41,064 nt of DNA from Catajapyx aquilonaris (taxonomy: Eukaryota). The stretch is taken from the NCBI GenBank assembly GCA_000934665.2, contig JYFJ02003472.1:1-41064 (forward strand), given 5' to 3'. The position numbers were made by a program, and so were the translations under genes. Positions 2,284 to 37,438 of the stretch are shown here, piece after piece. The notes under the pieces are model-generated. The model saw only the letters and a program-made list of their open reading frames with translations, was not told where the DNA came from and searched no databases. Within the stretch, counting starts at the first letter, position 1. Each line of letters opens with the position of its first letter.

Positions 2284-3533
2284 TTACAACCCTTTTCTTG
2301 TGTGGGTTTTCTTGTGATAATTTAAGTGATCACGACGAGCAAATTTCCTCTGGCATATGTCACAACAATACGGCTTCTCACCAGTGTGAGTCTTCATATG
2401 GGCAACCAAGATATATTTGTACTCAAACTTTTGGCCACAGTGGGAGCAAGAGTGCAACTCTCTTTCCCCAGTGTGAATTTGCATGTGATACTTCAGTTGC
2501 CTAGCTAGTGTGTAGGATTTTTTGCACACTTGACACGAATACTGCTTCCTGCCAGTGTGGGTCACCTTGTGATCTTCCAAAACACACCTATCACGAAACC
2601 TCTTACCACACACTTCACAAGAATAAGGCATAATACCAAGATGGACAACCTTATAATGCAATTTCAAGGCCTTGCTTGACATGTACCGTTTTTCACAGGC
2701 AGTGCAACCAAAAGGCTTTTCATCACTTCCGTGAACAAATCTATGCCTTTTGAACAACCCACTGTGTTTAGTCCTATATGAGCATCGATCACACTGATGC
2801 CATTCTTTCCCAGGCATCTCCTTTCCTTTCACTGTATCCAAAGCACCAGAAGTCCCAAGGTTCAGATCAGAGAAGGCGTCAGTGTCATTTGGACTATCTG
2901 TTTTGGTTGGCTGCATAAGCTGCTTGCACTACAAAGAGTTCAAAAGTAAATCAGGTGGTAATGAGCATTTCAAGTTTTAAGTTGATTAAAAGTTGTGATA
3001 AAGGACAATAGCATTCTGATCAATCTGCAGCCTTTTTAAAAAAGAAGATAGAAACCAACTCTACCAAAGGTTTAAGATGAGAGAGAATAAAAAGTAATGC
3101 ACAGCTTTTTAAATTTCGAAAATTCACACCACCACCACCGAACATATACACATGAGCATAATTATGTTCCCTAAGCTGAAGGTAATTTTAGCTTATGAAT
3201 GCCAGCGTACTTTTAAGATTACATAAATTAATGTTAACAGGGGAGGTGGATTGGTGCTGTGGAAACATACACGCCCACAGATGTAAGGGTGCCGAGTTCG
3301 ATCCCAAGCCCGGGCTTTCTCCCCCCTCATCTAGTGCAGAGTTGGATCGTCTCTGGTTTCGTCTCGGGTGGGATTCCTTGAGACTAACCACCCAGGAGAA
3401 CTCACAAAATGACCATATGAGACATTGGCCTGCACCTTGCACTTCCCCTCCCACTAATCCTTGCCTGTGGGCCCAGGCACTCTACATGACATTCACATTA
3501 AAGGTCCCCATGAGGGGTCAAATCACTACCCAG

Positions 3534-3598
<65 letters not shown>

Positions 3599-6500
3599 AT
3601 TAACCTTAACATTGCCAAGTGTGTGGCTTTATTGGAAGCTATCCATCATAAAGTAGGCCACTCGGCAAAAGAAAGCGAACATTTTAGGTAGACACACATG
3701 TATCAATCCCAAGTCTGGCTATGAAAAATAATTTATAGGCCACTGCGGCTGTGTAATAAATGGGAAAGAAAGTCCAGATTTTTAGGCAGAAAAAAAACCC
3801 GAAATAGGCACGAAATAACACCAAAATAAGCACTGAAATAAGCATGAAAAAACCTCAAATAGGCACAAAGATTATACTTTTACAGAAAATGAATAAGACA
3901 GCATAATTTTATCTAGGCCTAAACTCCTAAAGTATTTAATAAGTCACAAACCGGAGTGAAAACCGAATAACAACGATTAACTTACAGGCAATCACAAAAG
4001 GTGGGCAAAAGACATAAAGTGCAAGCAAGTATCGTTTGCTCCACTGGACTCCACTGGACCGCTCTCCACTTGTACAATATGGTGAGCTAAATATTTGTCT
4101 AAAATTTAGAAAAGTATTTGGCATACGCGCCACGGCAACATGATTCGCATGACTTCTGGATGATTTTGGTCCTTTCAGGAGCACACAAAATAGCCCGGAA
4201 AAAACACCCAAATATGCCTCTTAATGGGCTCAAGAAGTCCCGAAATCGGTTCACAATGTTCAAAAAATATCCCAAAAAATGCCAAATAGCGAAATGCAAA
4301 ACGCCACAATAGGCAAAATAGTTCCCAAATCCAAAAAAATTGGCCATTTTAGGCACTATAAAACCTGCATTTTCCACATCCTTCACTTATGAAATGGATA
4401 GATCTCTTCACAAAACCATCGCAACGGTTAAGGTACTATTTAGGCATTTGCCTAAAAATCCGGACTCCAGTAATAAAAATAACAGTAGGACAAGCACTGC
4501 ATTAATTAGTTTCAGTGCAGGCCTAGCTACACTGGAATAATTTTATTCCGGGGAAAGATCTGGTGTTACACCAATACTGTTTGTTGTAAGATCCATGTTA
4601 AAATTCATGTTGGGTTCATGTGACATTTAACTGGCAAAATAACCGGCTTTTCCATCAGTAATAGGTCCTTTTGGCTTAACACCAAGAGAAACATACCTTC
4701 CTTTGTCGCCTTTGGTTTTTTCCCCGACTTGAACCACGAAGAGCATCGTTAGCTGAGGGAGCGGATGGGGCATGTTCATCAATGGAGTCATTCACATCCA
4801 AAGTCAAGTCACCAATTTCAAGATTGTCTGTTTCATCAACCTGCAATAAGACAATTAGTGAATCTATTTCAGCTCTTGTTCCCGTTAGTTCTATTCACAT
4901 CAGTTGCAGCAAACACCTACCCATGTGCTCTAAAATATTGTGAAACACTTGCCTCTAATGGAATCTCCTCAAATTTGATGGGCCCAGTGTTCTCCCAGGT
5001 TGCAGAAGTGGAGGCCTGAAGTAAAATGAAAGGCAACTAGAGATTCGTAATAATATAATAATCAGACTTGTAGTACACTCCAGGTAACATTATAAACAAA
5101 GATCTCCAGATATATGGAGCATTCGACAAAATATTCACTGTGAAAAACATATCTACGTAAAATCATCTAATTCCTTCATTTATGGGGTTGTCACTAATTC
5201 AAATATGCTGACCTTTAAAAATTCCCATATTTTTTAGAATGTATGTTGCGCAAACACTGCACAATCAAGTCAGGAGGTGGATGTCAAAAGTGGCTGTCTT
5301 CATTTGTCATTGTTTTTGAGATGTCATGGCCATTAAAATCTTCAAGTAAAGGCACACTTAATCAGACAAAGACATTGGTCGAAATGATTCATCTTAGTTA
5401 TTGGTACCATAACAAGAGTGGATTCAGCTATACAAATCAAAGCTATAGAAGTGCCATTTTCTCAGAATGAGGTGGGGTCAAGATGACTTCTAATGGCTTC
5501 CACATCCTCGTGTAATCTATCAAGTAAACACACCGTACCTGGCTCCATGACTCACTCTCCGTCTCCGTCTCCTGCTTCATTGTTCCCTCTTGAAGCAAGT
5601 GCGATTCTTGATTCCCATTAGAATGAACTTCTTCAATGACTGGAAGGTCAGGTGAGGAAGCTTCCGAATCAATATTGCCAACGAGGGCAGCAATTTCGCT
5701 GATGTTTTTGGCTGTCTCTGCCTTCAAATCTCCATTCCAGTTCCCCTAAAAAAATAAGAACACATTTTCTGCAATTGACTAACAAAGTTACTGGTAGGAA
5801 CAGGTACTTCAATTTTTTTAACTATCCCAGGACCTTATTACAAAGTGTGTTTCCAATCAACTGTTCCGATAAACACTTGCCCCATAACCAGTGATTCATT
5901 ACATGACAGTCAGACCTCCTATGAACGAATGGGGCAAAAATTCTTAAAGAAGATTTCAAGTTTTTATTTTCCTGCATCGATTCATAATCAACATTTTAAA
6001 CTACAAATAATCCCACAGAGCTATTTAGAAGTATAGGTTTAAAATTACATATGTAGAGCTGACTTAAATTGTGTGGTTCTACGTGGCCGAGTCAAAACAA
6101 ATTGGGACTGATTTTTTATGTGGTAAAGAGAATTAGTTCATGACGTTTCGTGAGTGGCATCGTGTCCGGAATGCCTTGAAGTATTAGTTCACCAATTTTT
6201 TGTTTGACAATATTCCAAAATCCTGACAGTGACACCGAAAGTAAGCCTAGGTTTGTATTCGCCTCCGCTCTGCCAAGAGGTTGGCAGTGAGGACCCACAA
6301 TCAGGTTGATGTTTTTCTTCCATTTGAGGACGACACCGATGGAGGCATATGGCATGCTAAGAGAGTGCTAGAGCAGTGGTTCTCAAACTTTTTTGAACAA
6401 GTACCACTCCGTGAGGATCAGTAAACTGAAGTACCACTGTCAATGAATGGTTAATTTACACCGGTGTTGCTTTGAAGAAAATGTCACTATAATCACTGTA

Positions 6501-7226
6501 ATGACTATAATTTTGAGGTTAAAGTGATATATAACTAGTTAAAGAATAGTTTTTAAAAAGGGCGAGGCGTATAAACAGGTAAAACGACAGCAATATGCGC
6601 AGGCCACATGAGTATCGGTACCACTTGACATGGCTTGAAGTACCACCAGAGGTACGCGTACCACAGTTTGAGAACCGCTGTGCTAGAGGGCGAGGATTCG
6701 ATGAGTCCTCAAGTTGTTGACTGCAAAGGAGAAGCAGATGCGGGTGGAGGTTTGTGAAGAGCTTCAACGTCTTGTGGCCTCATCTGGTGACCAGTATCTG
6801 CTACTCACAATCTTAGCATGTCGTACACCTCCATGGCTGTTTTATTCAATCGGAAGCAAATCCTGAACCTACCCTTGTCCTCACCTCCTGCACTTCCCAG
6901 TCCTCTTCCTCCGCTTTAATTTCTGTTTCAATGTCACACGTATGCATCGACTCGCTGCCTGCATCTCCAGCGTCCACAGAAACAGACTCGGTGGGAAGGG
7001 ACTGGCCTGAAGCATCTTCTGGAATGCAAGACGCATTGATATCCGATGCGCACGCCCTTGTTCCTCCTTCATGCGTACCTTCCCTTCCACGCTTCTCCTT
7101 CTTCATCCACCCCTCCACCCTCCCGATGGCCTCCTGGCACCAGTCCACCCTGGAGACCAACCATTCCAGAAGCTTCTCGTTGCGGAGGGAGACTTCCATC
7201 AGAGATTCTAGAGTGACTGGAGCCAT
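2284..7226 (-). CDS. Gene A: coiled-coil/acidic-linker/6xC2H2 zinc-finger protein, ~446 aa
   Basis: Exons 7226-7079, 7018-6885, 5745-5539, 5015-4953 (GC donor), 4840-4697, 2928-2284 join in frame. Six C2H2 fingers with HTGEKP-like linkers. Confidence 0.85.
3240..3596 (+). mobile_element. tRNA-derived SINE with (ATT)n tail
   Basis: A-box-like TGGTGCTGTGG, B box GAGTTCGATCCC and (ATT)n tail at ~3534-3596. 16-bp TSD TAAATTAATGTTAACA / TAAATTAACCTTAACA (2 mismatches). Confidence 0.8.
3534..3596. repeat. (ATT)n microsatellite (SINE tail)
   Basis: About 21 perfect ATT units. Confidence 0.95.
3771..4466. mobile_element. Non-autonomous TIR element rich in AAATAGGCA-like repeats
   Basis: Inverted repeats AGTCCAGATTTTTAGGCAGA / TTTGCCTAAAAATCCGGACT. 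No clear TSD; superfamily unassigned. Confidence 0.55.
6082..6363. mobile_element. Truncated copy (left arm and core) of the mariner-type MITE at 8715-9124
   Basis: Near-identical to 8715-9000, including left flank (~5965-6081 vs ~8598-8714), so it was copied by segmental duplication. Confidence 0.75.
6374..6680. mobile_element. hAT (Charlie/Buster-like) MITE
   Basis: TIRs CAGTGGTTCTCAAAC / GTTTGAGAACCGCTG. Perfect 8-bp TSD TGCTAGAG (6366-6373, 6681-6688). Confidence 0.92.
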
Positions 7227-7323
7227 GGCTTTAAGTCCTAACTCGGGTTCTGTGATGTTTGGGTGGGTAAGGGAAATGAAAGGAAATCTTCAAAGGAACG
7301 TGCTTCTAACGGTTTTTTACACG

Positions 7324-7341
7324 GTCGCCATCTTGGATTGG
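7324..7341 (-). promoter_or_regulatory. CCAAT + YY1-type motif upstream of gene A
   Basis: Minus strand CCAATCCAAGATGGCGAC, conserved upstream of all 7 ATG-bearing first exons. Confidence 0.6.
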
Positions 7342-7812: not shown

Positions 7813-8460
7813 CTAAGACCTTGCTCCTTTGTGGGTTTTCTTGTGCTTAGTTAAGGAACCACGTTGAGCAAACTTCCTCTGGCAAATGTCACAACAATAC
7901 GGCGTCTCACCAGTGTGAATTCTCACATGCGCAACCAACCAAGATTTGCATCCGAACCCTTTGCCACAAATGGAGCAAGGGTGTAACTCTCTTTCCCCAG
8001 TGTGAAGTTTCATGTGATACCTCAAATTTTTAAGTAGAGTAAAGGACTGTTTGCACACGCGACATGAATGCTGCTGCTTGGCAGTGTGGGTCATCTTGTG
8101 CCCCTCCAAAACATACCTATCACGAAACCTCTTACGACACACTTCACAAGAATAATGCATGATAACACCATGATGGGCAACCTTATAATGCAATTTCAAG
8201 GCCTTGTTTGACATGTACCGTTTTTCACAAGCAGTGCAACCAAAAGGGTTTTCATCACTTCTGTGAACAAATCTATGCCTTTTGAACAACCCACTGTTTT
8301 TAGTCTTATATGAGCATCGATCACACTGATGCCATTTCTTTCCTGGCACCTCCTTTCCTTTCACTGTATCCAAAGCACCAGAAGTCCCAAGGTTCAGATC
8401 AGAGAAGCCATCAGTGTCATTCTCACTCACTCTTTCAGTTGGCTGCAGTAGTTGCTTGCA
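7813..8460 (-). CDS. Module B: lone 6xC2H2 terminal exon (no own promoter or intact E1-E5)
   Basis: Open 648-bp exon with intact ttgtag acceptor, phase 0. Fingers 1-3 are nearly identical to gene A. Confidence 0.7.
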   Translation of the reverse strand, partial: CKQLLQPTERVSENDTDGFSDLNLGTSGALDTVKGKEVPGKKWHQCDRCSYKTKNSGLFKRHRFVHRSDENPFGCTACEKRYMSNKALKLHYKVAHHGVIMHYSCEVCRKRFRDRYVLEGHKMTHTAKQQHSCRVCKQSFTLLKNLRYHMKLHTGERELHPCSICGKGFGCKSWLVAHVRIHTGETPYCCDICQRKFAQRGSLTKHKKTHKGARS

Positions 8461-9806: not shown

Positions 9807-10995
9807 CTACGACCTTGCCACTGTGTGGGTTGTCTTGTGACGAAACATGGTACTACGACAAGTAAACTTCCTCTGGCAAATGTCGCAACAATACGCCTTC
9901 TCACCAGTGTGAATCCTCACATGTTTAACCAAGTCAGACTTGAACTGGAACCCATTGCCACAGTGGCTACAAGAGTATAACTCTCTTATTCCAGTGTGCC
10001 ATATCATGTGATACTTCAATTTCCTAGCTAGAGTAAAGGATTTTTTGCACACTTCACATGAATGCTGCTTCCTGCCAGTGTGGGTCGCCTTGTGCTCCTC
10101 CAAATGCCCCCTCTTATTAAACTTCTTATCGCACACTTCACAAGAAAAAGGAGCAACACCAATATGTACAGCCTGATAATGCATTTGCAAGGAGCACTTT
10201 TCCATGAATCTCTTTTCACAAGCAGTGCAACCGAAAGGCTTTTCATGACTTCTGTGACCAGTCCCATGCCTTTTGAACAAAGCACTGTTTTGAGTATTAT
10301 ATGAGCATTGATCACACTGATGCCATTTCTTCCTTGGCATCTCCTTTCCTTTTACCATTTCCAAAGCCCCAGAAGTCCTACGGTTCTGATCAGAGAAGCC
10401 ATCAGTGATCTCTGTTTCAGTTGGCTGTGTTAGTTTCTTGTGCTGCAAAGAATTGAAACGTAATTAATGTGAGAATGAGCAGTTTCAGTGCATGTTCTAG
10501 CTTTACTTCATTCATTTATTCTGGTGAAAGGTGTGATGTTACATCAATGCTGTTCATGTCAATATTCAGGTCAAGGTCATGTTAAAGTTAACTGGCATAA
10601 AAACCGCTATTTCCAGCAATCAGGTTTGGCCATGTTTCGCTTAACACTAAATCAAACATACCTTTCTTTGTTGCCTTTGGGTTTTTTCCAGACTCGAGCC
10701 ACGAAGAGGATCATCAGCTGAGCGAGCAGATGGGGCATGGTCATCGCTGGAGTCATTCACACGCAAGGTCAGGTCAGCATTTTCCGTTTCATCAACCTGA
10801 AATATTAAATAGGACTTCTAGTGAATCTATTCTTGCTCCTGTTCTCATCAGTTCCATTCACATCACTTCCTGCAAACTGCTTCCTCGTCTTTACTCTTTG
10901 ACTAGGACCATGTGCTAAATTATAATGTGAAAAACACTTGCCTCTAATGGATTCGGCTCAACTTTGATGGACTCCCAGGTTGCAGAAGTGGACGC
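9807..10995 (-). CDS. Module C: promoterless E4+E5+6xC2H2 cassette
   Basis: Exons 10995-10942 (GC donor), 10796-10662 and 10442-9807, all open with intact splice sites. E4 and E5 each carry an in-frame 9-bp deletion. Confidence 0.72.
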
Positions 10996-11566: not shown

Positions 11567-14316
11567 CTACGACCATTCTCCTGTGTGGGTTTTCTTGTGA
11601 TAAAGTAATGTACCGCGCTGCGTAAACTTCTTCTGGCATATGTCACAACAATACGGCTTCTCACCAGTGTGAGTCCTCAAATGTTCAACCAATCGAGATT
11701 TGTGCTCAAGCTTCTTGCCACAATGAGTGCAAGGGTGTAACTCTCTTTCCCCAGTGTGAATTTTCATGTGATACTTCAGTTGCTTAGCTAGCGTATAGGA
11801 TTTTTTGCACACTTGACACGAATGCTTCTTTTTGCCAGTGTGGGTCATCTTGTGGTCCTCTAAATCCCTCTCATGACGAAACGTCCTGCCACACACTTCA
11901 CAAGAATAAGGCTTAGCACCAAGATGGTCAGCCTTATAATGCAATTGCAAGCCCTGGTTTGACATATATCGTTTTTCACAAGCTGTGCAACCAAAAGGCT
12001 TTTCATGACTTCTATGACCAAGAGTATGACTTTTGAATGATGCACTGTCTTGAGTCTTATATGAGCGCAGATCACACTGATGACAATTCTTTCCTGGCAT
12101 CTCTTTTCCTTTCACTGTATCCAAAGCACAAGACATCCCATGGTGCTCAGCAGAGAAGCCGCCAATGTCATTCGGACTCTTTCTTTCAGTTGGCTGCATT
12201 TGTTTCTTGCACTACAACGAATGTCGGATTGTAAGAAAGTACACAATACACTTTAGAGATCCAGCAAAAGTATGCAATGAAAAATTACGCGTGTGAATTT
12301 GGCTCACCACCTACGTCGGATCGAAGTGAAATCAATGGACTATGTAGTACTCTCAATGGACTCTTTGGACCTTTTTACTCTGTTCATTGGACCCTCTTAG
12401 TTTCAGAGATATTCGGTTTCAAAGCTTTCCAGCCAAATATTTCAATTGCGATTGTACAGACCCCATTTGAAGTAGCCGTCTGAAATTTATAAACCTGGCA
12501 GTAGTTGCCTTAGGATTACCAGGTCGATAATTCTCGTTAATTTTGGACTCGCATAGTTTCATAATATATTGTCCGCTTTAAAACTTCGGTAAATATTTTG
12601 AACCAGGATTCTCAGTCACTCGATTCGACAGAGCCATGGGAAATCAATGTGTCTCCTACGTATGGTATCATTAAATATTACTGGAACCCCACAACTACCA
12701 TCCAACTAGAATGGTCTGCGATGGTTGGATCCATACGTTAAAATTAACTGGCAAAGAAAACCTTCTTTTCCAGTAATTTGGATTGGCCCTGATTCTTTCA
12801 ACACTAAGACAAACATACCTTCTGTTGTCGTCTTTGGTTTTTCCGCTGTCTTGAGCCACATTCAGATTCATCAGTTGAGCGAACAAATGGGACATACTCA
12901 TAGCTGGAGTGATTCACACCCAAGGTCAGGTCACCAATTTCCCCCTTCTGCGCTTCACCAACCTGCAATATTCAAGAGGACTATTAGTAAATCTGCTCTT
13001 CTTCTCATCAGATCCATTCACATCACTTCCTGCAAACTGATTCCTGGTCTTTACTCTTTTACTTATGACCATGTGTTACATTATCATGTGAAACACTTGC
13101 CTCTAATGGAATCGCCTCAACATTGATGGCACCAGTGTTCTCCCAGGTTTCCGAAGTTGAGGTCTCGGAAAAATCACAGATCAGTAGGAATTAGTAACAA
13201 TATAATCAGACATAGAGTGCCCATACTTTAGCTGTCATACAGTGGCAGGCATCAGACAAAAGTAGTGATTTCATCAAAAACAAAAATATAATCCTCAAGT
13301 TTTCAGACTCACTGTTTTGCTTTTTGCAATTAATTGCTATACCTGGCTCAATAACTCACTCTCCGTGCCCATCTCTTGCTTCACTGTTCCCTCTTGCAGC
13401 AGGTGTAATTCTTGAGTCCCATCGGAATGAACTTCTTCATTGACTCCGAAATAGGCTGAGGAGGCTGATACACCTGCGCAGGTGAATATGGAAAAATTGC
13501 ATAGTCAGAGTGCACACAAAGTGGGTTAGTTAATTGACTCCTCAAAGAGGTCAGCTGATTGACCCTAAACTGCTCTGACCACCTCGGACAGAATATATTC
13601 CTGCTTGTTCCAAATGATACTTCCCAACTCTGAGGACAAGATTCATGCTCAGCAAAATATGAAACTTACTTGGAGGATTATTAAGTGCCCTGTAAGTGGC
13701 ACAAATTAAACCATGGTTTCATTCCCCGTGAGCCTACATACATTTTACCATGCGCGTGTGACATTAAAGAGTGTGTCATACTTGCTGAACGTCCATCTTC
13801 TGAATCAGCATTGCCGACAAGGGCAGCGATTGCACTGATGTTTTTGGCTGCCTCTGCCGCCAAGTCTCTATTCCAGCTCCACTGAAAAAATATAAGTTCA
13901 TTCAATTGTGAGGCGTAATGCTACACGCGTTTAGACTATCAGCACTTGACCCTGCATCCTGTCCTGTAATCACCTGCTGCGATTCCCAATCCTCTTCCTC
14001 CACTTTTATTTCTTTTTCAGCGTTATACGCAGGCATTGACTCGCTGACTGCGTCTCCAGTGTTGACAGAAACAGACTCGGTGGGAAGGGACTGGCCTGAA
14101 GCATCTTCTGGAATGCAAGACGCATTGTTATCCGATGCGCACCCTTGTTCCTCCTTCATGCGTACCTTCCCTTCCACGCTTCTTCTCCTTCTTCATCCAC
14201 CCCTCCACCCTCCCGATGGCCTCCTGGCACCAGTCCATTCGTGACATCAACCCTTCCAGAAGCCTCCTGTTGCCTAGAGACACTTCCATCAGAGACTCCA
14301 GGGTGACTGGAGACAT
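11567..14316 (-). CDS. Gene D: coiled-coil/C2H2 zinc-finger protein, ~455 aa (finger 1 has Cys->Arg)
   Basis: Exons 14316-14166, 14107-13974, 13881-13782, 13473-13343, 13163-13101, 12962-12819, 12211-11567 join in frame. Confidence 0.8.
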
Positions 14317-17364: not shown

Positions 17365-17521
17365 GGCTTGTGCACCTCTAAGAGTCCTCAGATGTTCGAC
17401 TGATGGTCCAGACGATGCTGGATCAGAAGCGAGTCGAAAAAAGGAAGGAAGGAGGTCCAAAAGGAGGTGGAAATGGAAAGGAAATGCTTCAGAGGAAGAG
17501 TCTTCTTAAAGGAAAGAGACG

Positions 17522-24400: not shown

Positions 24401-25347
24401 CATATCTTTGCTTGGTCCAAATGATACTTCCAAACATTGCGGACAAGGTTCATGCTCAGCAAATTATGATTGGCACATATTAAAGCGTGGCCTACCTGCT
24501 GAATGTCCAACTTCTGAATCAACACTGCCGACAAGTGCAACAATTTCCCTGATGTTTCTGGCTGTCTCTGCGTCCAGGTCTCTGTTCCGGGCACCCTGAA
24601 AAATAACTCTTAATTTATTCTGTCAACTCTCTCAGACCCATAGACTATTGCAAACTGTATTTCCAACCATGAGCAGTGCTTCATCACGTGACACTTCTTC
24701 CATGAACCAATGTGGCAAAAAAAATACCTTGAATCAATGCCTCAAGGCCGTATTTTTCTGTGTCAGTACACTTATATCACCAAAATTTTTAACCAAATGA
24801 AACCAGCACTGATTGCGATCTGAACATGGAGGTCTAAAATATCAAAAAAACTATGTAACCACTTGCCAAAATTTGGCAAAGGTGGTTGGTCTCTTTCTCC
24901 CCCATCCACCCTCCCTCCCTCTCTCTTCTGCCTGGAAGACATCTTGCTCCAGTTGTTCAGCCTGTAGTCCTACACATGGGACAAAGTCTAACAGCACATG
25001 ATCTTGTCCTCACCTGCTCCCAGTCCTCTTCCTCCACTTTTATTTCCTCTTCAATCTTACACGCAGGCATAGACTCGCTGCTTGCGTCTCCAGTGTCCAC
25101 AGAAACAGACTCGGTGGGAAGGGACTGGCCTGAAGCATCTTCTGGAACGCAAGACGCATTGATATCCGACGCACGCCCTTGTTCCTCCTTCATGCGTACC
25201 TTCCCTTCCACGCTTCTCCTTCTTCATCCACCCCTCCACCCTCCCGATGGCCTCCTGGCACCAGTCCACCCTGGAGACCAAACACTCCAGAAGCCTCCTG
25301 TTGCCAAGAGACACTTCCATCAGAGACTCCAGGGTGACTGGAGACTT
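21439..25347 (-). CDS. Unit G: ZNF family member lacking promoter and normal ATG, with a 1-bp frameshift in E5 (possible pseudogene or alternatively spliced module)
   Basis: Exons 25347/25320-25200, 25141-25014, 24595-24496, 24309-24179, 22953-22897, 22757-22615 (143 bp rather than 144), 22071-21439. The zinc-finger exon is open. Confidence 0.6.
23717..23948. mobile_element. MITE-like inverted-repeat element bounded by TTAA
   Basis: CTTAACTTGAAACGTGGGGTCCTTTTCGGACCC / GGGTCCCAAAAGGATCCCACGTTTCAAGTTAAG. It lies within a larger foreign segment (~23030-23990). Confidence 0.6.
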
Positions 25348-25852: not shown

Positions 25853-28282
25853 TTAGCGATGGGTTTTCTTGTGATAAGTTAAGGAACTACGATGAGAAAA
25901 CTTGCTCTGGCAAATGTCGCAACAATAGGGCTTCTCACCAGTGTGGACCCTCAAATGTTCAACCAATCGAGATATGTGCTCAAACACTTTGCCACAGTGG
26001 GAGCAAGAGTGGAATCCTCTTTCTCCAGTGTGAATTTGCATGTGATATTTCAATTGCGTGGGTAGAGTAAAGCATTTTTGGCACACTTGACATGAATGCT
26101 GCTTCCTGCCAGTGTGGGTCATCTTGTGGTCCTCCAAATCCCACCTCCTACTAAACTTCTTATCGCACACTTCACAAGAAAAAGGAGCTACACCAAGATG
26201 AACAGCCTGATAATGCAATTTCATGGAGTGGTTTCTCCTAAATTGCTTATCGCAACCAGAGCAACAGTAACCCTTTCCACACCTTCCTTGAACAGTTTTA
26301 TGACTTTTGAAGTTACTGCTGTTTTGAGTCTTGTACGAGCATTGATCACACCGATGCCACTTGCTTCCTGGCAGCTCCTTTCCTTTCACCATTTCCAAAG
26401 CACCAGACGTCCCACGGTTCTGATCAGAGAAGCCATCAGTGTCCTTCCGACTCTCTCTTTCAGTTGGCTGCATAAGCTGCTTGCACTACAAAGAATTCAA
26501 AAGTAATGCACTTTTATATTGATTTCAAGTTGTCGTGATTAAGGACATTAGCATGAGATATCTCAGGCCTTTCTTATAACCAAGATAGAAACCAATACTA
26601 CCAAAGTTTAAATATGAAAGGGGGAATGAAAAAGACTGTGATTCGGGTTGGGGCCGGAGAAGGCGGATGGGGTAGTGAACTGGAGAATGCCCCATGGCCA
26701 CTGCATTGGAGAAGGTGGGGTGGAAGAATCTCGGTGGGGTTTGGTCGAAGGCAGGCTGGGAGGAGTCAGTCAGACTGCGGGGCTCAAGCCGAACATCAGC
26801 CGCCAACAGAACAAATTCACTCTTTGTGTTGGTGTATCCTCAATTCCTCATGGCTTTTATTGATGCTGAGGATTTGATATTGTAAAAGTTGTGAATTTAT
26901 TTTTTTATTCGTCCTCGTATGTCATGCTCAAAACAACATAACACAAAATTTTATTTCTGCGCCCTAGGCAAATGCAAGTGCAATGGAGTGAGGGTTTTCC
27001 TAGTATTCTGCATTAATTTGTCTCAGTTCATGGGGCCTGCCCTAGCAACACTGCGATTCATTTATTCTGGCGAAAGGTATGATGTGACACCACTGCTGTT
27101 CATGCTAAGAATCATGTTAAGTTCACGTTAAAGATAACTGGCATAAAAACTGCTTTTTCCAGCATATGGGTTGGGCCCCTGTTTCGCTTAACACCAAGAG
27201 AAACATACCTTCCTTTGTGGCCTTTGGCTTCTTCCCCGACTTGAGGCACGAAGAGGATCATCATCTGACTGAGCAGATGGGGCAATCCTATTGCTGGAGT
27301 CATTCACACGCAAGGTCAGGTCACCTATTTCCTCCTCTTCTGCTTCATCAACCTGCAATATTCAATACGACTAATCAATCAATTCCAGCTCTATTGTTCT
27401 CTCCAGTTCTACTCAAATCACTTACAGCAAACTGCTTTCCCATCTTTACTATATTACGATGGTCACGTGCGGAATTATAATGTGAAACATTTTCCTCCAA
27501 TGAATTTTCCTCAACTTTGATGGACTCGGTGCTCTCCAAGGTTGCAGAGTCCTGCGAGGAAAAATATTGCTTGACTCGGTTTACAGCTGCGGTTTTCTCA
27601 TGGAAACAACATGCATTATTTAGCATTCAGGCATGTCATATATGATTTCAGCAGGTCATTCAAGCTGACAATTATAAGAGAGTTCTGGGGAATATTATCA
27701 ACAATGGGAACAATGGGAAAAGGCAACCCACAATTTTTGGACTATCCATTCGTGACATAACCGCCGCCAAACACAGGGGCCCACATTTAAAAATGGACAG
27801 CAGGTCCCGAGTTGCTCGACTCTTAATTTGAAACGTGGGGCCCTTTTCGGACCCCAGGGTATGCTTATGTCACCACCCCTCAGCTATCTCTCGCCAAAAT
27901 GAAAAATCGCACACCTGCATTCCTCAAATATACTCTTTCATACCTGAAAAAAAATTATGTGCGACAAAAATTTGGTTTAAAATAGAGTTATTGTCATTAA
28001 GACGCTCACGAATCATGTTAGGGCCCCAAAAGGATCCAACTTTTCAAGTTAAGCACGGCTCAATGAGGTTTCATACTGAGAGTTGAGAATGTTTTCAAAA
28101 ATGTCAAAAAAGTGATGACGTAATATGATCACATGATATTGTCCTCACCTGCTCTTGTTCCCAGTCCTCTTCATCCACTTTTATTTCTGTTTCAATCTCA
28201 CACGCAGGCATTGACTCGCTGCCTGCATCTCCAGTGTCCATAGAAACAGACTCTCCGGGAAGCAACTGGCTCGAAGCAACTT
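25853..28282 (-). CDS. Module H: promoterless E2 + (E4 without donor) + E5 + C2H2 exon
   Basis: Open E2 28282-28149, E5 27352-27209 and E6 26485-25853 have intact splice sites. E4 starts at 27551 but its donor is mutated to GAAAAT. Confidence 0.65.
27822..28053. mobile_element. Second copy of the TTAA-bounded MITE-like element (segmental duplicate)
   Basis: 27628-28093 is near-identical to 23528-23990. Confidence 0.6.
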
Positions 28283-28504: not shown

Positions 28505-30732
28505 CTACGAACTTGCTCCTTTGTGCGTTTTCTTGTGATAATTTAAGGAACTACGTTGACCAAATGTCTTCTGGCAAATGTTGCAACAGTACGGCTTCTC
28601 ACCAGTGTGAATCCTCTCATGTTCAACCATTTTAGATTTGTGCTCAAACCCTTTGCCACAATGGGTACAAGCATGTAACTCTCTTGCTCCGGTGTGAAAT
28701 TGCATGTGAAGCTTCAATTGTCTAGCTCGAGTAAAGGATCTTTTGCACAATTGACAGGAATACTTGCCAGTGTGGGTCATCATGTGGTTCTCCCAATCCC
28801 TCTTCTCGCGAAACTTCTTATCGCACACTTCACAAGAGAAAGCGGAAACACCAAGGTGGACTACCCGATAATGCATTCGCAAGTAGTAGTTTGATTTAAA
28901 TCGCTTTTCACAGGCAGTGCAACCAAATTCGCCATTTCTGTGGACTTTTTTATGCCTGTTGAAGGTCCCAGTGTATGCAGTCTTATACGAGCATAGATCA
29001 CACTGATACAATTTCTTTCCTGGCATCTCCATTCCCTTCACCATATCCGAAGCACCAGAAGTCCCCTGGTGCTCAGCAGAGAAGCCATCAGTGTCATTTG
29101 GACTCACTGTTTCAGTTGGCTGCAGTAGTTGCTTGCGCTACAAAGAATTCAAAAGTTGTCGTTAGGGACTGTACACATGTGCATATATGTTCTCAAGCTT
29201 AAGGGAATGTTACCATATGTATATTTAAATATAATTTGTTTCAATGCAGGGGTCTTAGCCCATTTACACTGCATTCATTTATTAATGTGAAAGGTCTTAA
29301 GATCCATGATTCATGAGGTAACTGGCAAAATTTAAAAAAAAACCTGCTTCTCCAACAAATTAGGTTCGGCGAAGGAAGGTACGTTTGTGTTAGTTTTAAG
29401 CGGATCAAGTCCATTCCGCTTAAAACTAACACAAACATACCTTCCTTCGTCGCCTTTGGTTTTTCCTGCAACTTGAGCCACAACCAGGATCATCTGAGTG
29501 AGCAGATGGGGCACGTTCATTGCTGGATTCATTCATTTTCATGGTCGGGTCACCAATCTCTGCGATTTCCGTTGAATCATCAACCTGCAGTATCAAATTG
29601 TACTATTAGTAAATCTACTCTTGTTGTCATCAGTTATATTCACATCATTTGCAGAAAACTGATTTCTCGTCTTTTATGATGGCCATGTGCTAAATTATAT
29701 GGTGAAACACTTACCTCTAAAGGAATCTCCTCAACTTTGACTGACTCGGTGTTCTCCCACGTTGCCGAAGTAGGGACCTGCAGTAAAATAAGACATAAAT
29801 GAAGACTACTGTAATCCAATCAGACATGGAGTACCCATAATTCAACAGCAGTAAACTGGCAGGATGAAAATATTCAGGCAAAGGTGCACCTCATGAGCCA
29901 AGGACCTTGGCAGACATTAGTTATCTTGGTACAGTACAATAACAAGGAGAGGAAATGGTGGGAATCACATTTCCAGCAATCCAAATAGAAACTGAAAAGT
30001 CGAGCGTTTCTCCAAATCAGGTTTGGTGGAATGAGCCGCTTTTTCATTCCACATCCACAAGTAATCAAGTAATGTCCATACCTGGCTCCATGACTCATTC
30101 TCCGTCCCCGTCTCCTGCTCCAGTGTTCCTTCTTGAAGCAATTGTGATCCTTGAATCCCACAGGAATGAAATTCTGGAATGACTGGAAGATCAGGTGATG
30201 TAGCTTCTGAATCAGCATTGCCAACAAGGGCAGCAATTTCATTGATGTTTTTGGCTGTCTCTGCCTCCAAGTCTCTATAACATCTGCCCTAAAAAGTAAG
30301 AACACATTTAATTGAATTCATTAACAAGGTTACTCGTGCTTATAATTTTTAAAGTCTATCAGCACCTGAACCTTCGCGTGCTCTGTGCTCACCTGCTGCG
30401 ACTCCCAGTCGTCTTCCTCCACTTTTATGTCGTCTTCAATGTCATACTCAGGGATTGACTTGCTCCTTGCATCTCCAGTGTTGACAGAAACTAACTCAGT
30501 GGGAAGCAACTGGCCTGAAGCATCTTCTGGAATGCAAGACGCATTAATTCCTGATGCCCATCCTTGTTCCTCCTTCATGCGTACCTTCCCTTCCACGCTT
30601 CTTCTTCTTCATCCACCCCTCCACCCTCCCGATGGCCTCCTGGCACCAGTCCACCCTGGAGACCAACAATTCCAGAAGCCTCCTGTTGCCTAGACAGACT
30701 TCCATCAGAGACTCCAGGGTGACTGGAGACAT
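28505..30732 (-). CDS. Gene I: coiled-coil/6xC2H2 zinc-finger protein, ~442 aa
   Basis: Exons 30732-30585, 30526-30393, 30288-30082, 29777-29715 (GT donor), 29584-29441, 29137-28505 join in frame. Confidence 0.85.
29370..29449. repeat. 35-bp inverted repeat with 10-nt loop covering the E5 splice donor of gene I
   Basis: CGAAGGAAGGTACGTTTGTGTTAGTTTTAAGCGGA / TCCGCTTAAAACTAACACAAACATACCTTCCTTCG. Confidence 0.92.
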
Positions 30733-31638: not shown

Positions 31639-34068
31639 CTACGACGGTTGTGCTCCTGTGTGGGTTTTCTTGTGACGAAGAAAGTTACTGCGATTAGCAT
31701 ACTTCTTCCGGCAAATGTTGCAACAATAAGGCTTCTCGCCAGAGTGGACCCTAACATGTTCAACCAAGTGGGATTTGTACACAAATCCTTTGCCACAGAC
31801 GGTACAAGAGTGCAACTCTCTTTCCCCGGTGTGAAGTTTCATGTGATATTTCAAATGTTGAGCTAGAGAATATGATTTTTCACACACTGGACACGAATGC
31901 GGCTTCTTACCAGCGTGGGTCATCTTGTGCTCCTCCAATTTGCTCCTCTCGCAAAACTTCTTTTCGTCACTTCTGTGAACAATTTTATGCCTTTTGAAGT
32001 GTCCGCTGTGTTGTGACTTATATGAGCACAGATCACACTGATGCCATTTCTGTCCTGTCATCACCTTTCTTTTCACCATTTCCGAAACACCAGACGTCCC
32101 CTGGTGCTCAGCAGAGATGAAGCCATCAGTGGTGCTCTGACTCTCTGTTTCAGTTGGCTGTATTTGTCGCTTGCGCTGCAAAGAATTCAAAAGTAAAGCA
32201 GGTGGGGATCAGAATGCAAGTTTTAAGTTGATCAAACATACCTTCCTTTGTCGCCTTTGGTTTGTTTTGTGACTTGCGTCACAAAGAGGATCATCATCTG
32301 AGTGGGCAGATGGGGCATGGTCATCGGTGGAGTCATTTACACGCAAGGTCAGGCCAGTGGTTCCTGCCTTTTCCGTTTCACCAACCTGCAATATTCAAAA
32401 AGACTTTTAGTGAATCTGCTCCCATTCTCATTACTGCTATTCAAATCACTTACAGACTGCTTCCTCATCTTTATTCTCTTACGAGTGCCATGTAAAACAC
32501 TTGCCTCTAATGGAAGTTCCTCAAAATTGATGAATTCAGTGTTCTCGCAGGTCGCAGAAGTGGAGGCCTGTGGGAACATAACAGACCAGTTGCAATTGGT
32601 AGTAATATAATCAAACTTGTAGTACCCCAATTTTACCTGTCATAAACTGGCAGGTACCAGACAAAATTAAAATTTTGACATCAAAAGCGAAAATAATTAT
32701 AATCATCATGCTTGCAGGCTGACTGTGTCGCCACAATTAGCTTCCCATAAAATCAGGCACTTCTCCCAAGCAAATGTGTGGGTGCTAACCACAATGTGAT
32801 GCACTGTTACGATTATCTCGTTCATCTTGCAATTACAACAATAAATTATGCTTGACTGTGGTTTTTTCAGGGAAACAATATGCATTATTTATTTCCAACC
32901 CATGTCCTAAATGACATCAAGATGTCATTAAAGAATAATGTCAGCAAGTTTGGGGGCATTTAGGTAATACTGTCAAGAAAATATCTCTAAATATGCATGT
33001 AACATTAGACAAAAAAATTCACTGGGAAACACATATCAAAAATCATTACTTCAATCCTTCAATTACACCACTGATTTTCCGTAATTTAAATATGTTGCCC
33101 CTTAAAAATTCCTCCAGTTTGTAGAATATATGGTGTACAAACACTGTACTATCTAGTGAGGAGATTGAAGTCAAAAGGGGCAATTGTTTTTATTTCGCCT
33201 TTGAGCTGGCACTGCCGTTAAAATATTCAAGTGAAGGTACACAGAAATAATGAGCCGAAGACCTGCGTGCAAATGAGTCATCTTGGTACATGCAAATCAG
33301 GGAAACACATTTGCAGCTGTAGAAATTGAAACTGAAAAGTTGTATTTTCTCAAGATGAGGTTCGGTGAAGAGATTTTGGCTTCCACATCCTGAACTAATC
33401 ACGTAATGACCATACCTGGCTCCATGACTCACTCTCCATGTCCATCTCTTGCTTCAATGTTCCCTCCTGAAGCAATTGCGGTCCTTGAATCCCATGGGAA
33501 TGAACTTCTCCAATGACTGGAAGATCAGACGAGGTAGCTTCTGAATCAACATTGCCAATAAGCGCTTCAATTTCACCGGTGTTTTGGGCTGTCTCGGCTT
33601 CCAAGTCTCTTTTACAGCTCCCCTAAAAAAATAACAACACATTTAACTACATTGACTAATAAGGTTACTGGCACTTTTTGATTTTTAGAAGTCTAGCAGC
33701 ACTTGATCCTTCGTGTGCCCTGTCCTCACATGCTGCGACTCCCAGTCCTCTTCCTCCACTTTTATTTCTGTTTCAATGTCACACGCAGGCATTGACTCGC
33801 TGACTGCATCTCCAGTGTCCATAGAAACAGAGTCGGTGGGAAGGGACTGGCCTGAAGCATCTTCTGGAATGCAACCGCATTGTTATCCGATGCGCACCCT
33901 TGTTCCTCCTTCATGCGTACCTTCCCTTCCACGCTTCTCCTTCTTCATCCACCCCTCCACCCTCCCGATGGCCTCCTGACACCAGTCCATTCGTGACATC
34001 AATCCTTCCAGAAGCCTCCTGTTGCCTAGAGACACTTCCATCAGAGACTCCAGGGTGACTGGAGACAT
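31639..34068 (-). CDS. Gene J: ZNF family member, ~410 aa, with in-frame loss of finger 2 and half of finger 3 (4 complete fingers)
   Basis: Exons 34068-33921, 33863-33730, 33622-33416, 32567-32505, 32385-32242, 32175-31639 join in frame. Confidence 0.8.
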
Positions 34069-34231: not shown

Positions 34232-34746
34232 ATTCCAAAGGGCCTGTTCTCACCGCCGTCTGAGAAACAAACCTGAGGGTGCGTTCTGACCGGTGCTTTC
34301 GTGACAGTGTTGGAATGACGACTGGATACGCAGCATCAGATATTAAATTATGTGACTTAATTCTGATTTAAACCAGCCTACCTTCCCTTCAACCCTTCTT
34401 CATCCAACCCGCCATCCTGTGCATTCGTCTCCGGGAGGATTCTGGCGATAATGTGTGCCTTTTCGAAACAACTTATTCAATTATGATGTTCATGCAGCAA
34501 CAATTTATTTACAAATATACACTCAGTATACTCGAAAGTGTAGGAAACAAATGGTCAATCCACTGAATCGCTGAACTGAATTTTAATGATTTAACACTTG
34601 AAATCCACAGTTGTAGTATGAAAAGTGGACAGCTATTATCCATATGATGCAAGTTGCACTGAAATGGCTTAACACTAATGGTGTTTCATGACAGGTAATG
34701 CAACAAATGTGTTGTAACATTTTTTGAAATCCTAGGACTTTGCTCC

Positions 34747-37438
34747 TCAGTGGGCTCTTTTCTTGTGACGAATTAAGTCACCACGACCAGCAAACTGCTT
34801 CTGGCATATGTCGCAACAATAAGGCTTCTCACCAGTGTGGACCCTAATATGTGCCACCAATAGAGATTTGCATGCGAACCCTTTGCCACAAGTGGAACAA
34901 GAGTGTAACTCTCTTTCCCCAGTGTGAAGTTGCATGTGATACTTCAAATGTCTAGCTTGAGTAAAAGATTTTTCACACAGTCCACAGTGATGCTTCCTGC
35001 CAGTGTGGGTCACCTTGTGCTCCTCCAATTTGCTCCTCTCGCAAAACTTCCTACCACAAACTTCACAAGAGAAAGGTGCAACACCAAGATGGACAGCCTG
35101 ATAATGCATCTGCAAGTAGCGGTTCGATGTAAATCTCTTTTCACAGGCAGTGCAACCAAAGGGCTTTTCGTCACTTCTGTGAACTATTTGATGCCTCTTG
35201 AAGTGTCCGCTGTGTTGAGTCTTATATGAGCACAGATCACACTGAAGCCATTTCTGAGCTGGCAGAGCCTTTCTTTTCACCATTTCCGAAGCACCAGACG
35301 TCCCCTGGTGCTCAGCAGAGACGAAGCCATCTGTGGTGCTCTGACTCTCTGTTTCAGTTGGCTGTATTTGTCGCTCGTGCTGAAAATAATTCAAACGTAA
35401 AGCAGGTGGGAATCAGCATGGCAAGTTTTAAGTTGATCAAAAGTTGTAATGATTAAGGACAATAGCATGAGCAATATAACCATGATGGAAACCAATTCTA
35501 CAAAAGTTTTAAAACATTGACATATCAACTCTTAATGTAAATTCAGAAGAGTTATCACAGAAACCGATCCTGACATTCACGTATGAAAGGGCAAGTGAGT
35601 TCATGCTAAAGGTAACTGGCATAAAAACTGATTTTTCCAGCAATTAGGTATTGCCCATGATTCGCTTAACATTACGTCAAACATACCTTCCTCTGTCGCC
35701 TTTGGTTTGTTTTGTGACTTGCGTAACAAAGAGGATCATCATCTGAGTGAGCAGATGGAGCATGTTCATGGATGGAGTCATCCACACGCAAGGTCAGGTC
35801 ACCGATTTCCACCTTTTCTGTTTCACCAAACTGCAATATTCAATATGACTTCTAGTGAATCTGCTCTTGTTCTCATTACTGCTATTCATATCACTTACAG
35901 CAAATTGCTTCGTGGGCTTCATTCTCTTACGAGTGCCATGTAAAACACTTGTCTCTAATGGAAGTTCCTCAACATTGATGAACTCAGTGTTTTCCCAGGT
36001 TGCAGAAGTGGAGGCCTGTGGAAAAATAACACAGCAGTTGCAATTGGTAGTAATACGTAAAACCAGAGTTGCAGTACCCCTATTTTACATGTCATAAACT
36101 GGCAGGTACCGGACAAAAGTAGAGATTTTGGCATGAAATGCCAAAATAATTATAATCATCATGTTTGCAGGCTGACTGTTTCGCCACATTTAGCTTCCCA
36201 TAAAATCAGGCACTTCTCCCAAACAAATGTGTGGGTGGTAGCCACATGCGATGCACTGTTACGATTATCTCTTTCGTTTTGCAATTACAATTGAGGCGCT
36301 CAGAGGAAGATTGAACCGATTGGCGATTGAAGTCAAAAGTGGCTATCTTATTTTTTTCTTGCTTTTGAGTTGAGACTGCCATGAAAATCTTCAAGTAAAG
36401 GTATGCCTAATGAGCCAAAGACCTGGGTAAAAATTAGTCATCTTGGTATACCCGCAAGCATGAAGTTGGAGATGCTGCGGGCCTCCTCTGACCTTTCTTT
36501 ATCCAACTCGAATTAATGGATTATTTTTGGACTGAGTTAGCTGTTTCAGGCCTGTGTTCATGTCTTTATAACAGTATATATGATACCGTAATAGCCGAGA
36601 TTGGAAGAGCACCCGGCCGTCTCCAACTTTATGCTTGCAGGTGTACATGCAAATCTGAGAATCGCATTTGCAGCTGTACAAATCGAAACTGAAAAGTGGA
36701 ATTTTCTCAAGATGAGGTTCGGCGAAGAGTCTGCATTTGGCTTCCACCTCCTGAAGTAATCAAGTAGTGTCCCATACCTGGCTCCATGCCTCACTCTCCA
36801 TGTCCATCTCTTGCTTCAGTGTTCCCTCCTGAAGCAATTGCTGTCCTTGAATCCCACAGGAATGGACATCTGGAATGACTGGAAGATCCGTTGAAGTTGC
36901 TTCTGAATCAACATTGCCGACAAGTGCAGCAATTTCAGTGATGTTTTTGGCTGCCTCTGCTTCCAAGTCTCTATTACAGCTCCCCTAAAAAATACGGCCA
37001 TGTTTAATTGAATTGACTATCAAGGTTACTGGCACTTTTTGATTTTTAAAAGTCAAGCAGCACTTGATCCTTCATGTGCCCTGTCCTCACAGTCTGCTCC
37101 GACTCCCAATCCTCTTCCTCCACTTTTATTTCTGTATCAATGTCACACGCAGGCATCCCCTGGCTGCCTGCATCTCCAGTGTTGACAGAAACAAACTCGG
37201 TGGGAAGGGACTGGCCTGAAGCATCTTCTGGAATGCAAGACGCATTGTTATCCGATGCACACGCCCTTGTTCCTCCTTCCTGCGTACCTTCCCTTCCACG
37301 CTTCTCCTTCTTCATCCACCCCTCCACCCTCCCGATGGCCTCCTGGCACCAGTCCATTCGTGACATCAACCCTTCCAGAAGCCTCCTGTTCCCTAGAGAC
37401 ACTTCCATCAGAGACTCCAGGGTGACTGGAGCAGCCAT
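34747..37438 (-). CDS. Gene K: coiled-coil/6xC2H2 zinc-finger protein (~423 aa if E4 is skipped)
   Basis: Exons 37438-37288, 37227-37091, 36984-36778, [36015-35953, donor mutated to AC], 35830-35687, 35379-34747. Confidence 0.8.

Follow-up and report, generated by a model that had tools for sequence, protein, structure and literature searches.

The window, which is the whole stretch of 41,064 nucleotides analysed here, carries on its minus strand 11 open C2H2 finger exons and eight copies of a first-exon peptide, E1. We consider it likely that these belong to a tandem family of compact C2H2 zinc-finger (ZNF) transcription-factor genes analogous to the KRAB, ZAD and FiNZ families, which silence mobile DNA in mammals, flies and carp, and that it is a family in which the proteins are headed by a helix, the contact residues of the fingers are diversified and the 5' end of the genes is homogenised. 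The family is probably lineage-restricted.

Gene models with 6-7 exons each were built by establishing homology exon by exon with conserved splice sites (Table 1). The cluster spans positions 2284-37438, ends that correspond to the last gene's stop codon and to the start codon (ATG) of the first gene with an E1, and uninterrupted ORFs of 410-455 aa were present in seven of the eight E1-bearing genes. The models bore out the tandem layout proposed by the first-pass annotation, in which a constant 5' module is followed by variable fingers on a single exon. The introns of the exemplar, G8, were all GT-AG except intron 5, which was GC-AG. In G2 the donors after E2 and E5 were AC rather than GT or GC, and the splicing of this copy may be defective. 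G3 has a deletion that removes finger 2 and a portion of finger 3. The partial copy G5 begins about 220 nt past the stop codon of G4, and its finger 1 is without the second His; in G9 the second Cys of finger 1 was replaced by Arg. G6 is probably defective, with the ATG of E1 changed to AAG and a 1-nt frameshift in E6.

Table 1. Positions of the genes, partial copies and associated features in the window.
Feature	Coordinates	Strand	E1	Finger exon	Description
Decayed 5' block	38165..38400	-			End of E1, intron 1 and E2-like stretch; stops and frameshifts
G2	34747..37438	-	37288-37438	34750-35379	6 coding exons, with E3 fused to E4; 443-aa stop-free frame by homology
G3	31639..34068	-	33921-34068	31642-32175	6 coding exons; intact 410-aa ORF
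G4	28505..30732	-	30585-30732	28508-29137	6 coding exons; intact 442-aa ORF
G5, partial copy	25853..28282	-			E2-, E5- and E6-like exons and open finger exon, without E1
G6	21439..25347	-			E1 present; open finger exon; long intron rich in repeats
G7	18163..20432	-	20285-20432	18166-18807	7 coding exons; intact 455-aa ORF
G8 (exemplar)	15042..17364	-	17217-17364	15045-15689 (E7)	7 coding exons; intact 455-aa ORF; E2 17025-17158, E3 16835-16934, E4 16376-16506, E5 16070-16132, E6 15788-15931
Intron 1 of G8	17159..17216	-			58 nt; class of 57-60 nt, 93% identical among 7 paralogues
G9	11567..14316	-	14166-14316		7 coding exons; intact 455-aa ORF
G10, partial copy	9807..10995	-			E5- and E6-like exons and open finger exon, without E1
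G11	7813..8460	-			Lone open finger exon; no upstream exons found
G12	2284..7226	-	7079-7226	2287-2928	6 coding exons; intact 446-aa ORF
Further E6-like exon	1341..1486	-			Finger exon beyond the window start
Starts of E1 matches (tblastn)	7226, 14316, 17364, 20432, 25344, 30732, 34068, 37432	-			
Joints in X5 contigs	15689/15788, 16504/16833, 16933/17024, 18807/18991, 19133/19242				

An Rfam scan of the window returned no match. The 79 intergenic or intronic ORFs of at least 55 aa gave no transposon protein in Pfam, and one sub-threshold MH1 match. ORFs antisense to E1 were observed on the plus strand and were attributed to the purine-rich sense strand. In DNA run X1 the summed contig depth was about 550-1150 over E1 and about 50 nearby; as depth is not copy number, this is a weak hint of further E1 copies.

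Five of the modelled introns (introns 2, 3 and 6 of G8, and introns 5 and 6 of G7) were skipped exactly in contigs of X5, and the depth at all five joints was 0 in DNA run X1. E1 was joined to E2 without intron 1 in one X5 contig. The library type of X5 is not on record, and it was taken to be an RNA library because of these spliced joints. With X5 taken as RNA, the genes are transcribed, and their splicing follows the models. The possibility that intron 1 is kept and translated was considered and rejected, as the intron has a frame-breaking length of 57-58 nt in five of the seven copies measured and 60 nt in the other two.

A tblastn search with the 46-aa E1 peptide gave eight matches with E-values of 5e-24 to 1e-28; over 45-46 aa these were 84.8-100% identical to the query. 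The three other matches in the window (E 0.37-5.2) were noise. In the alignment of the 49-aa E1 exon, 38 of 49 positions were invariant, and the most divergent copy, that of G12, had 85% amino acid identity. This is concordant with the earlier description of E1 as almost invariant across eight copies. AlphaFold2 predicted a single unbroken helix over residues 6-48, with a mean pLDDT of 94.5. The heptad pattern noted previously (a/d series L,L,M,C,I,V,M) was present but statistically weak: the best register had hydrophobic residues at 9 of 14 a/d positions, a count that 947 of 10,000 shuffles of the same composition also attained. The call of a coiled coil, which leaned on this statistic, is thereby weakened. 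A complex prediction for two E1 copies scored 0.07 against a mark of 0.32, in a comparison run without controls, and weighs neither for nor against self-association.

The conservation of E1 did not end at the exon boundary. Nucleotide identity among the paralogues was 93% in E1, 93% in intron 1 and 86% in E2, versus 65-80% in the other introns and 78% in E7. The dS of E1 (0.19) and E2 (0.17) was about one third of that of the fingers (0.52), and was only 0.08 for E1 codons 28-49. The conservation of intron 1 is not explained by RNA structure, since folding the intron with its flanks gave no stable structure (z +0.93). As intron 1 was as conserved as E1, the invariance of E1 does not reflect protein constraint alone. 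The low dS at the 5' end and the conservation of intron 1 therefore point to a block (E1, intron 1 and E2) that is kept alike by gene conversion or recombination, together with purifying selection on E1. The reading of E1 invariance as protein-level constraint in the first-pass annotation thus stands only in part: much of it is homogenisation at the DNA level, with purifying selection visible alongside (ω 0.25). As a caution for tandem families, gene conversion can account for much of what looks like a 'perfectly conserved domain'; the sign of it here is an intron that equals its adjoining exon in conservation.

It could be argued that homogenisation is the whole explanation, and that E1 is a meaningless leader of an ordinary poly-ZNF cluster, invariant only through gene conversion at the 5' end or a very recent segmental duplication (covering the promoter-proximal sequence, E1, intron 1 and E2). 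The intron identity and low dS described above would fit this explanation, as would the mosaic relationships of the exons, the nearest paralogue differing between E5, E6 and E7, and the decayed copy near 38165-38400, which still keeps the sequence of intron 1 and E2. We nevertheless consider it unlikely. Inside the same homogenised block the ω of E1 was 0.25 versus 0.91 for E2, so amino acid change has been selectively removed from E1. In the first 27 E1 codons of G12, silent changes were about as numerous as replacement changes in a by-eye reading of the alignment. The number of invariant residues and the confident prediction of E1 as one helix also argue against a meaningless leader.

The first-pass annotation did not recognise the E1 domain, and neither did the searches performed here. 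None of the eight E1 copies matched a Pfam family, envelope families included, at E<=10, and a PDB profile search with E1 (177,635 sequences) gave nothing significant, the best match having an E-value of only about 1. Searched with single E1 sequences, phmmer gave 0 PDB matches at E<=10. A phmmer search of 1.84e9 representative proteins, in a library with many fish proteomes, gave 0 matches; at whole-library E-values a domain of 46 aa would escape detection once its identity fell below about 55%, and the lack of relatives may be due in part to an unannotated lineage. Among longer proteins, 63 candidates were retrieved with E1 plus E2 and none was significant, and the 240-aa N-terminal part, compared by blastp with 120 listed ZNFs, gave nothing below E 0.8. 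The E1 alignment had 23 pattern matches in viral contigs and 329 in metagenome contigs, none of them confirmed. In a Foldseek comparison of the E1 model with BFVD, two matches were obtained at E 8-9.5, values which are meaningless for a lone helix. In the literature, where a peptide is not searchable by meaning, the only N-terminal modules associated with fish ZNFs that came up were FiNZ and the KRAB-like proposal, and nothing matching E1 was found.

The best PDB match raised the question of a viral origin. Residues 6-24 of E1 aligned to Moloney MLV p15E (1mof_A, residues 18-36) with 11 of 19 identities, including an N-R-R core, and the aligned Asn occupies a core position in the E1 heptad. 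An immunosuppressive motif bearing N-R-R is a conserved hallmark of gamma-type envelope proteins, and its Asn lies in the trimer core. E1 might then derive from the transmembrane (TM) subunit of a gamma-type retroviral envelope, as a domesticated piece that runs from where the N-terminal heptad repeat ends into the first part of the immunosuppressive-domain motif, captured as a first ZNF exon and retained as a trimerising or dimerising helix. This origin seems very improbable to us. The E-value of 1mof_A (1-1.5) against 177,635 sequences is at chance level, an equally weak second match was to an unrelated viral membrane protein, no further retroviral TM chain was matched in the PDB, and single E1 sequences did not reproduce the match. 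In gamma-type envelope TM the immunosuppressive motif is followed by CX6CC, which is absent from E1 (one Cys and no CC), and the E1 model stays helical where TM proteins turn. The phmmer and Pfam results above, and the lack of support among viral contigs and BFVD folds, point the same way. Were the helix nevertheless derived from an envelope TM, an anti-retroelement defence family would carry a piece of a retroelement.

The finger exons were stop-free in all 11 cases and encoded six C2H2 fingers each, with fewer in G3 and single zinc ligands lost in G5, G6 and G9. Fingers 1 and 2 were atypical, finger 2 being spaced H-x4-H. Pfam assigned the finger exons to PF00096 (69-89 bits, cut-off 25.2) and PF13465 (88-100 bits) for the three exons searched, and a pattern search of the alignment of 11 exons gave six fingers; both identify them as tandem C2H2 arrays of consecutive C-x2-C-x12-H-x3-4-H fingers. 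The finger exon matched 745 longer proteins with a best identity of 49% and no orthologue among them. With the pre-finger region plus fingers 1-2, one of five candidates was a match, a 1769-aa ZNF236-like fish protein (47%). Judged by its best finger matches only, the cluster would come from a eukaryote that is probably a ray-finned fish.

The four-letter contact strings previously read for finger 3 and finger 6 were exactly reproduced; ESKE and HSSY each occurred twice, giving 10 distinct strings among 11 arrays. The claim that contact residues differ between paralogues was upheld by an excess of nonsynonymous change: pN at the 24 contact codons was 0.443, permuted positions averaged 0.245 (sd 0.035), and none of 500 random position sets reached 0.443. 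At the contact positions (-1, 2, 3 and 6) ω was 1.1-1.55 versus 0.28-0.42 at other finger positions, making them 4-5 times faster; ω was 0.02 for the zinc ligands, compared with 0.42 for other finger positions and 1.55 for contact positions. The bootstrap 95% interval of contact ω was 0.92-1.80 with all 11 arrays and 0.78-1.56 with the seven intact genes. In this dN/dS comparison the contact positions were therefore the fastest, but their ω was not significantly above 1, and local relaxed constraint may be acting on them. Strong purifying selection acts on the zinc ligands and on the framework of the fingers, and divergence at the contact positions is close to neutral in rate or exceeds it; the paralogues should consequently read different DNA sequences.

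A contact ω compatible with 1, and the presence of damaged copies (G2, G3, G5, G6, G9, G10 and G11), are also what a decaying pseudogene array would display, the hypervariability of contact positions then being neutral drift. It is extremely unlikely that this describes the cluster, as the absence of stops from every finger exon, the seven open full-length ORFs, the existence of spliced contigs and the low ω of the zinc ligands (0.02) and non-contact finger positions (0.28-0.42) would all have to be set aside.

Between E1 and the fingers lies a linker of about 190 aa, which is acidic (19-23% Asp+Glu) and probably disordered. Three psi-K-x-E motifs were found in it, namely IK[VA]EE in E2 (7/7 proteins), [LVM]KQE in E4 (5/7) and [IV]K[VF]EE in E5 (4/7), and we take these conserved motifs to fit the SUMO-acceptor consensus. 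The basic NQRRQRK-like patch that ends the linker is a likely nuclear-localisation signal. The FiNZ module starts with an F-I-K-E-E-like motif, and this start presumably resembles the psi-K-x-E motifs of E2 and E5 rather than E1.

In ZNFs, the N-terminal domains ZAD, SCAN and BTB mediate dimerisation. Should the E1 helix self-associate, the family would resemble the ZAD-ZNFs of insects and the SCAN-ZNFs and BTB-ZFs of vertebrates in carrying an oligomerisation module N-terminal to its finger array, and ZAD-ZNFs likewise form lineage-specific tandem clusters. No Pfam match to ZAD (PF07776), SCAN (PF02023) or BTB (PF00651) was found in the N-terminal exons, and E1 has one Cys, unlike ZAD, which needs four zinc-binding Cys. 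KRAB (PF01352) was absent at E<=1 from the E1+E2 read-through ORFs, E2, E3-E4, E5 and E6, and at E<=10 from the eight E1 copies. KRAB is a multi-helix fold, whereas E1 is modelled as a single helix, and the cluster proteins carry only six fingers. A further mark of KRAB-ZFPs is binding of TRIM28/KAP1, or of TRIM33 in the case of the fish KRAB-like proteins. Tetrapod KRAB-ZFPs, as well as those ZNFs proposed to be 'KRAB-like' in ray-finned fish, share with the cluster one or more constant 5' effector exons, variable single-exon fingers, tandem clustering and rapid change at positions -1, 2, 3 and 6 (PMC9101882, PMC11603059).

The cyprinid FiNZ-ZNFs (Wells et al. 2023, PMC10547256) have two coding exons, of which the Glu-rich FiNZ exon, 28 aa long, lies directly upstream of the one for the fingers. 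Similarities to the present family (PMC10547256) are a short lineage-specific N-terminal module on its own exon without similarity to known domains, a single-exon finger array, large tandem expansions, fast-evolving fingers and an acidic N-terminal region. The layout found here was not that of FiNZ, as there are 6-7 coding exons, with a 49-aa helix exon and 4-5 linker exons before the fingers; the two families are set apart by this description of FiNZ and not by sequence.

In each full gene of the family, a first exon of 49 aa, predicted to form one long amphipathic helix, is followed by the acidic linker with its basic patch and by a last exon that encodes all six fingers. We propose that the helix would serve as a protein-protein interface, through self-association or cofactor docking, in a role like that of KRAB, ZAD, SCAN or FiNZ, and the acidic linker with its putative SUMO motifs might add repression. 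The family may diversify to track fast-changing targets, for example transposable elements (TEs). The repressor or effector function and the TE targeting are proposed purely by analogy. A more specific reading, that E1 is an undescribed ZNF-associated domain, a 43-residue helix that oligomerises or recruits corepressors at the head of KRAB/FiNZ-like, TE-tracking repressors of one poorly annotated animal lineage, is possible, but we put it forward tentatively and lean against it.

Fast-changing genomic targets have repeatedly been met by lineage-specific ZNF expansions with a private N-terminal module, such as KRAB, ZAD, SCAN and FiNZ, and with every new module the coupling of a finger array to the chromatin machinery is tried out independently. 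A module that consists only of a helix and has no relatives would be a structurally distinct addition to these solutions. With six fingers and about 450 aa, this is a small and tractable family in which TE targeting might be tested outside tetrapods and cyprinids.

The tandem C2H2 zinc-finger family formed a one-directional minus-strand array of 11 open finger exons (E7), called as six-frame ORFs, and eight copies of the 49-aa first exon (E1), located by tblastn with the E1 peptide from the first-pass annotation (84.8-100% identity to the query). The GC content of the window was 39-46%, with a CpG observed/expected ratio of 0.54. The best finger matches by identity were from percomorph fishes (43-49%), and insect and amphibian proteins were also among the matches listed.

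Positions of finger exons, E1 starts and intron 5 donor sites (gene copies numbered from high to low coordinates)
Feature	Position	Strand	Source
Finger exon, G2	34747-35412	minus	six-frame ORFs
Finger exon, G3	31639-32208	minus	six-frame ORFs
Finger exon, G4	28505-29137	minus	six-frame ORFs
Finger exon, G5	25853-26485	minus	six-frame ORFs
Finger exon, G6	21439-22071	minus	six-frame ORFs
Finger exon, G7	18163-18807	minus	six-frame ORFs
Finger exon, G8	15042-15737	minus	six-frame ORFs
Finger exon, G9	11567-12211	minus	six-frame ORFs
Finger exon, G10	9807-10463	minus	six-frame ORFs
Finger exon, G11	7813-8460	minus	six-frame ORFs
Finger exon, G12	2284-2928	minus	six-frame ORFs
E1 starts	7226, 14316, 17364, 20432, 25344, 30732, 34068, 37432	minus	tblastn
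Intron 5 donor, G8	16068-16069	minus	exon mapping
Intron 5 donor, G7	19241-19242	minus	exon mapping

The exemplar gene G8 (17364-15042) had seven coding exons (148, 134, 100, 131, 63, 144 and 645 nt) and an unbroken ORF of 455 aa, with GT-AG introns except for intron 5, which was GC-AG. When its exons were mapped onto the other copies, the seven-exon structure was also found in G7 and G9, and a six-exon version with E3 and E4 fused in G2, G3, G4 and G12; uninterrupted frames of 410-455 aa were present in seven genes. The GC-AG intron 5 (donor GCAAGT) was kept in G3, G6, G7, G8, G9, G10 and G12, and its donor was GT in G4 and AC in G2, where two donor sites read AC. G6 carried AAG in place of ATG and a 1-nt frameshift, E1 was missing from the partial copies G5, G10 and G11, remnants of a decayed 5' block lay at ~38165-38400, and an E6-like exon (1341-1486) belonged to a copy that runs off the window.

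The partial copies (25853-28282, 9807-10995 and 7813-8460) lay directly downstream of full genes with their finger exons still open, G5 beginning ~220 nt past the G4 stop; such copies could have arisen by unequal crossing-over or could serve the upstream gene as alternative 3' ends. A 135-bp tandem repeat (2.7 copies, 91% matches) occupied positions 1-358 and extended past the window start, and a perfect (ATT)21 microsatellite was located at 3534-3597 in the long last intron of G12. At 22224-22524 and 22826-23728, the summed contig depth in the DNA run X1 was 2,700-11,600 versus ~50 nearby, which points to a high-copy repeat within the long intron of G6, a defective gene; its ORFs gave no match to a transposon protein domain.

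Contigs from run X5, whose library type is not on record, skipped exactly five modelled introns. Four of these had CT..AC ends (GT..AG on the minus strand) and the fifth fitted a GC-AG intron; the GC-AG intron 5 of G7 was skipped in an X5 contig. All five joints had a depth of 0 in X1. One X5 contig joined E1 to E2 without intron 1 (17237 to 20228, the E1 end being 6 nt shorter) and, because of its 12 differing letters, probably derives from a paralogue at another genomic location, which suggests that this paralogue is expressed and has a slightly different E1 C-terminus. We read the X5 contigs as cDNA-derived evidence for splicing as modelled, which is uninformative on expression level.

Across the 11 arrays, the 24 codons for contact positions (-1, 2, 3 and 6) had a dN of 0.67, a dS of 0.43 and a ω of 1.55, compared with a ω of 0.42 for other finger positions and 0.02 for the zinc ligands. 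None of 500 random sets of four non-ligand positions per finger reached the observed contact pN, and entropy was maximal at positions -1, 2 and 3, in line with the hypervariability noted in the first-pass annotation. Change at contact positions is thus 4-5 times as fast as elsewhere in the finger and equals or exceeds the neutral rate. With the dS of all finger codons as denominator, contact ω was 1.27 (bootstrap 95% interval 0.92-1.80), or 1.10 (0.78-1.56) in the seven intact genes, intervals that include 1, so that this sample does not formally establish ω>1.

Mean nucleotide identity among seven paralogues and substitution rates (Nei-Gojobori, pooled over pairs)
Feature	Identity	dS	dN	ω
Upstream 200 nt	78%			
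E1	93%	0.19	0.048	0.25
E1 codons 28-49		0.08	0.014	0.18
Intron 1 (57-60 nt)	93%			
E2	86%	0.17	0.152	0.91
E3-E4		0.39	0.179	0.45
E5	84%			
E6	75%	0.34	0.290	0.84
E7 (finger exon)	78%			
Fingers		0.52	0.213	0.41
Other introns	65-80%			

The nearest paralogues differed by exon (G8 and G12 for E5, G8 and G9 for E6, G9 and G12 for E7). These mosaic relationships, the conservation of intron 1 to the level of E1 and a threefold deficit of silent change in the 5' block point to gene conversion or unequal recombination as the process that homogenises the 5' end. As an alternative to gene conversion, intron 1 (17159-17216 in G8, and in six other genes) could have a function at the DNA or RNA level. RNA structure was rejected as the cause of its conservation (z +0.93, no stable fold), as was intron retention, because most copies have an intron length not divisible by three. 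Besides being homogenised, E1 has been shielded from replacement changes to a greater extent than E2, its neighbour in this block. The near-invariance of E1, previously attributed to constraint on a domain, thus reflects purifying selection only in part, as intron 1 is equally conserved. The 3' half of E1 was nearly invariant at silent sites (codons 28-49). Its sense strand (~17217-17270, minus, and paralogues) was purine-/G-rich with several GGG/GGGG runs, which accounts for long plus-strand antisense ORFs across E1; the tract could be G-quadruplex-prone or conversion-prone.

In the alignment of eight copies, 38 of the 49 E1 positions were invariant, and AlphaFold2 on this alignment gave one helix (residues 6-48, mean pLDDT 94.5). 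The a/d series of the proposed coiled coil was present (L6, L9, S13, N16, L20, L23, M27, C30, I34, V37, M41), but its score was equalled in the best register by 947 of 10,000 shuffles and is unremarkable because the sequence is hydrophobic enough. The first-pass annotation had not recognised the domain, and the searches agreed. No Pfam family was found for the E1+E2 ORFs (E<=1), for any of the eight single E1 peptides (E<=10) or for the remaining N-terminal exons. Searching 1.84 billion representative proteins by phmmer gave no match at E<=0.001, and none of 63 candidates from a word-seeded search among longer proteins was significant, with whole-library significance unattainable for a domain of 46 aa at less than about 55% identity. 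This library includes many fish, amphibian and insect proteomes, so its annotated proteins contain no close relatives of E1; none were found in viral or metagenome contigs. Full-text literature searches yielded no description of this module.

The E1 profile gave two PDB matches (E ~1). Residues 32-45 aligned to 9e41_B, a viral membrane protein of 75 aa, and residues 6-24 to Moloney MLV p15E (1mof_A 18-36) with 11/19 identities including N-R-R. The p15E match falls on the motif that typifies the TM subunits of gamma-type envelopes. Kinship of E1 with such a subunit is nevertheless very improbable, as the match is at chance level and was not reproduced with single E1 sequences, Pfam gives no envelope support and E1 lacks the CX6CC motif.

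Residues 50-240 were 19-23% acidic and 6-9% basic. The psi-K-x-E motif, the SUMO-acceptor consensus, occurred in E2 of all seven proteins, with acidic residues after it (IK[VA]EE), in E4 of five ([LVM]KQE) and in E5 of four ([IV]K[VF]EE); E6 ended in a basic NQRRQRK-like patch in most copies. SUMO-modified repressors recruit silencing factors.

On each membership test that could be run, the family fell outside the KRAB-, ZAD-, SCAN- and FiNZ-headed ZNFs. The N-terminal exons had no Pfam match to KRAB, ZAD or SCAN, E1 has only one of the four Cys needed by ZAD, and FiNZ-ZNFs are set apart by their exon structure. By analogy, the E1-headed cluster may nonetheless work like these families. Its genes are spliced with open frames, finger scaffolds are constrained while contact residues diversify, and the 5' block is homogenised with E1 under purifying selection. 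Following KRAB-ZFPs and FiNZ-ZNFs, as described in PMC10547256 and PMC11603059, the E1 helix would be a protein-protein interface for self-association or cofactor docking, the acidic linker with its SUMO motifs would mediate repression, and the paralogues would differ in the DNA that they bind, with transposable elements as plausible targets.
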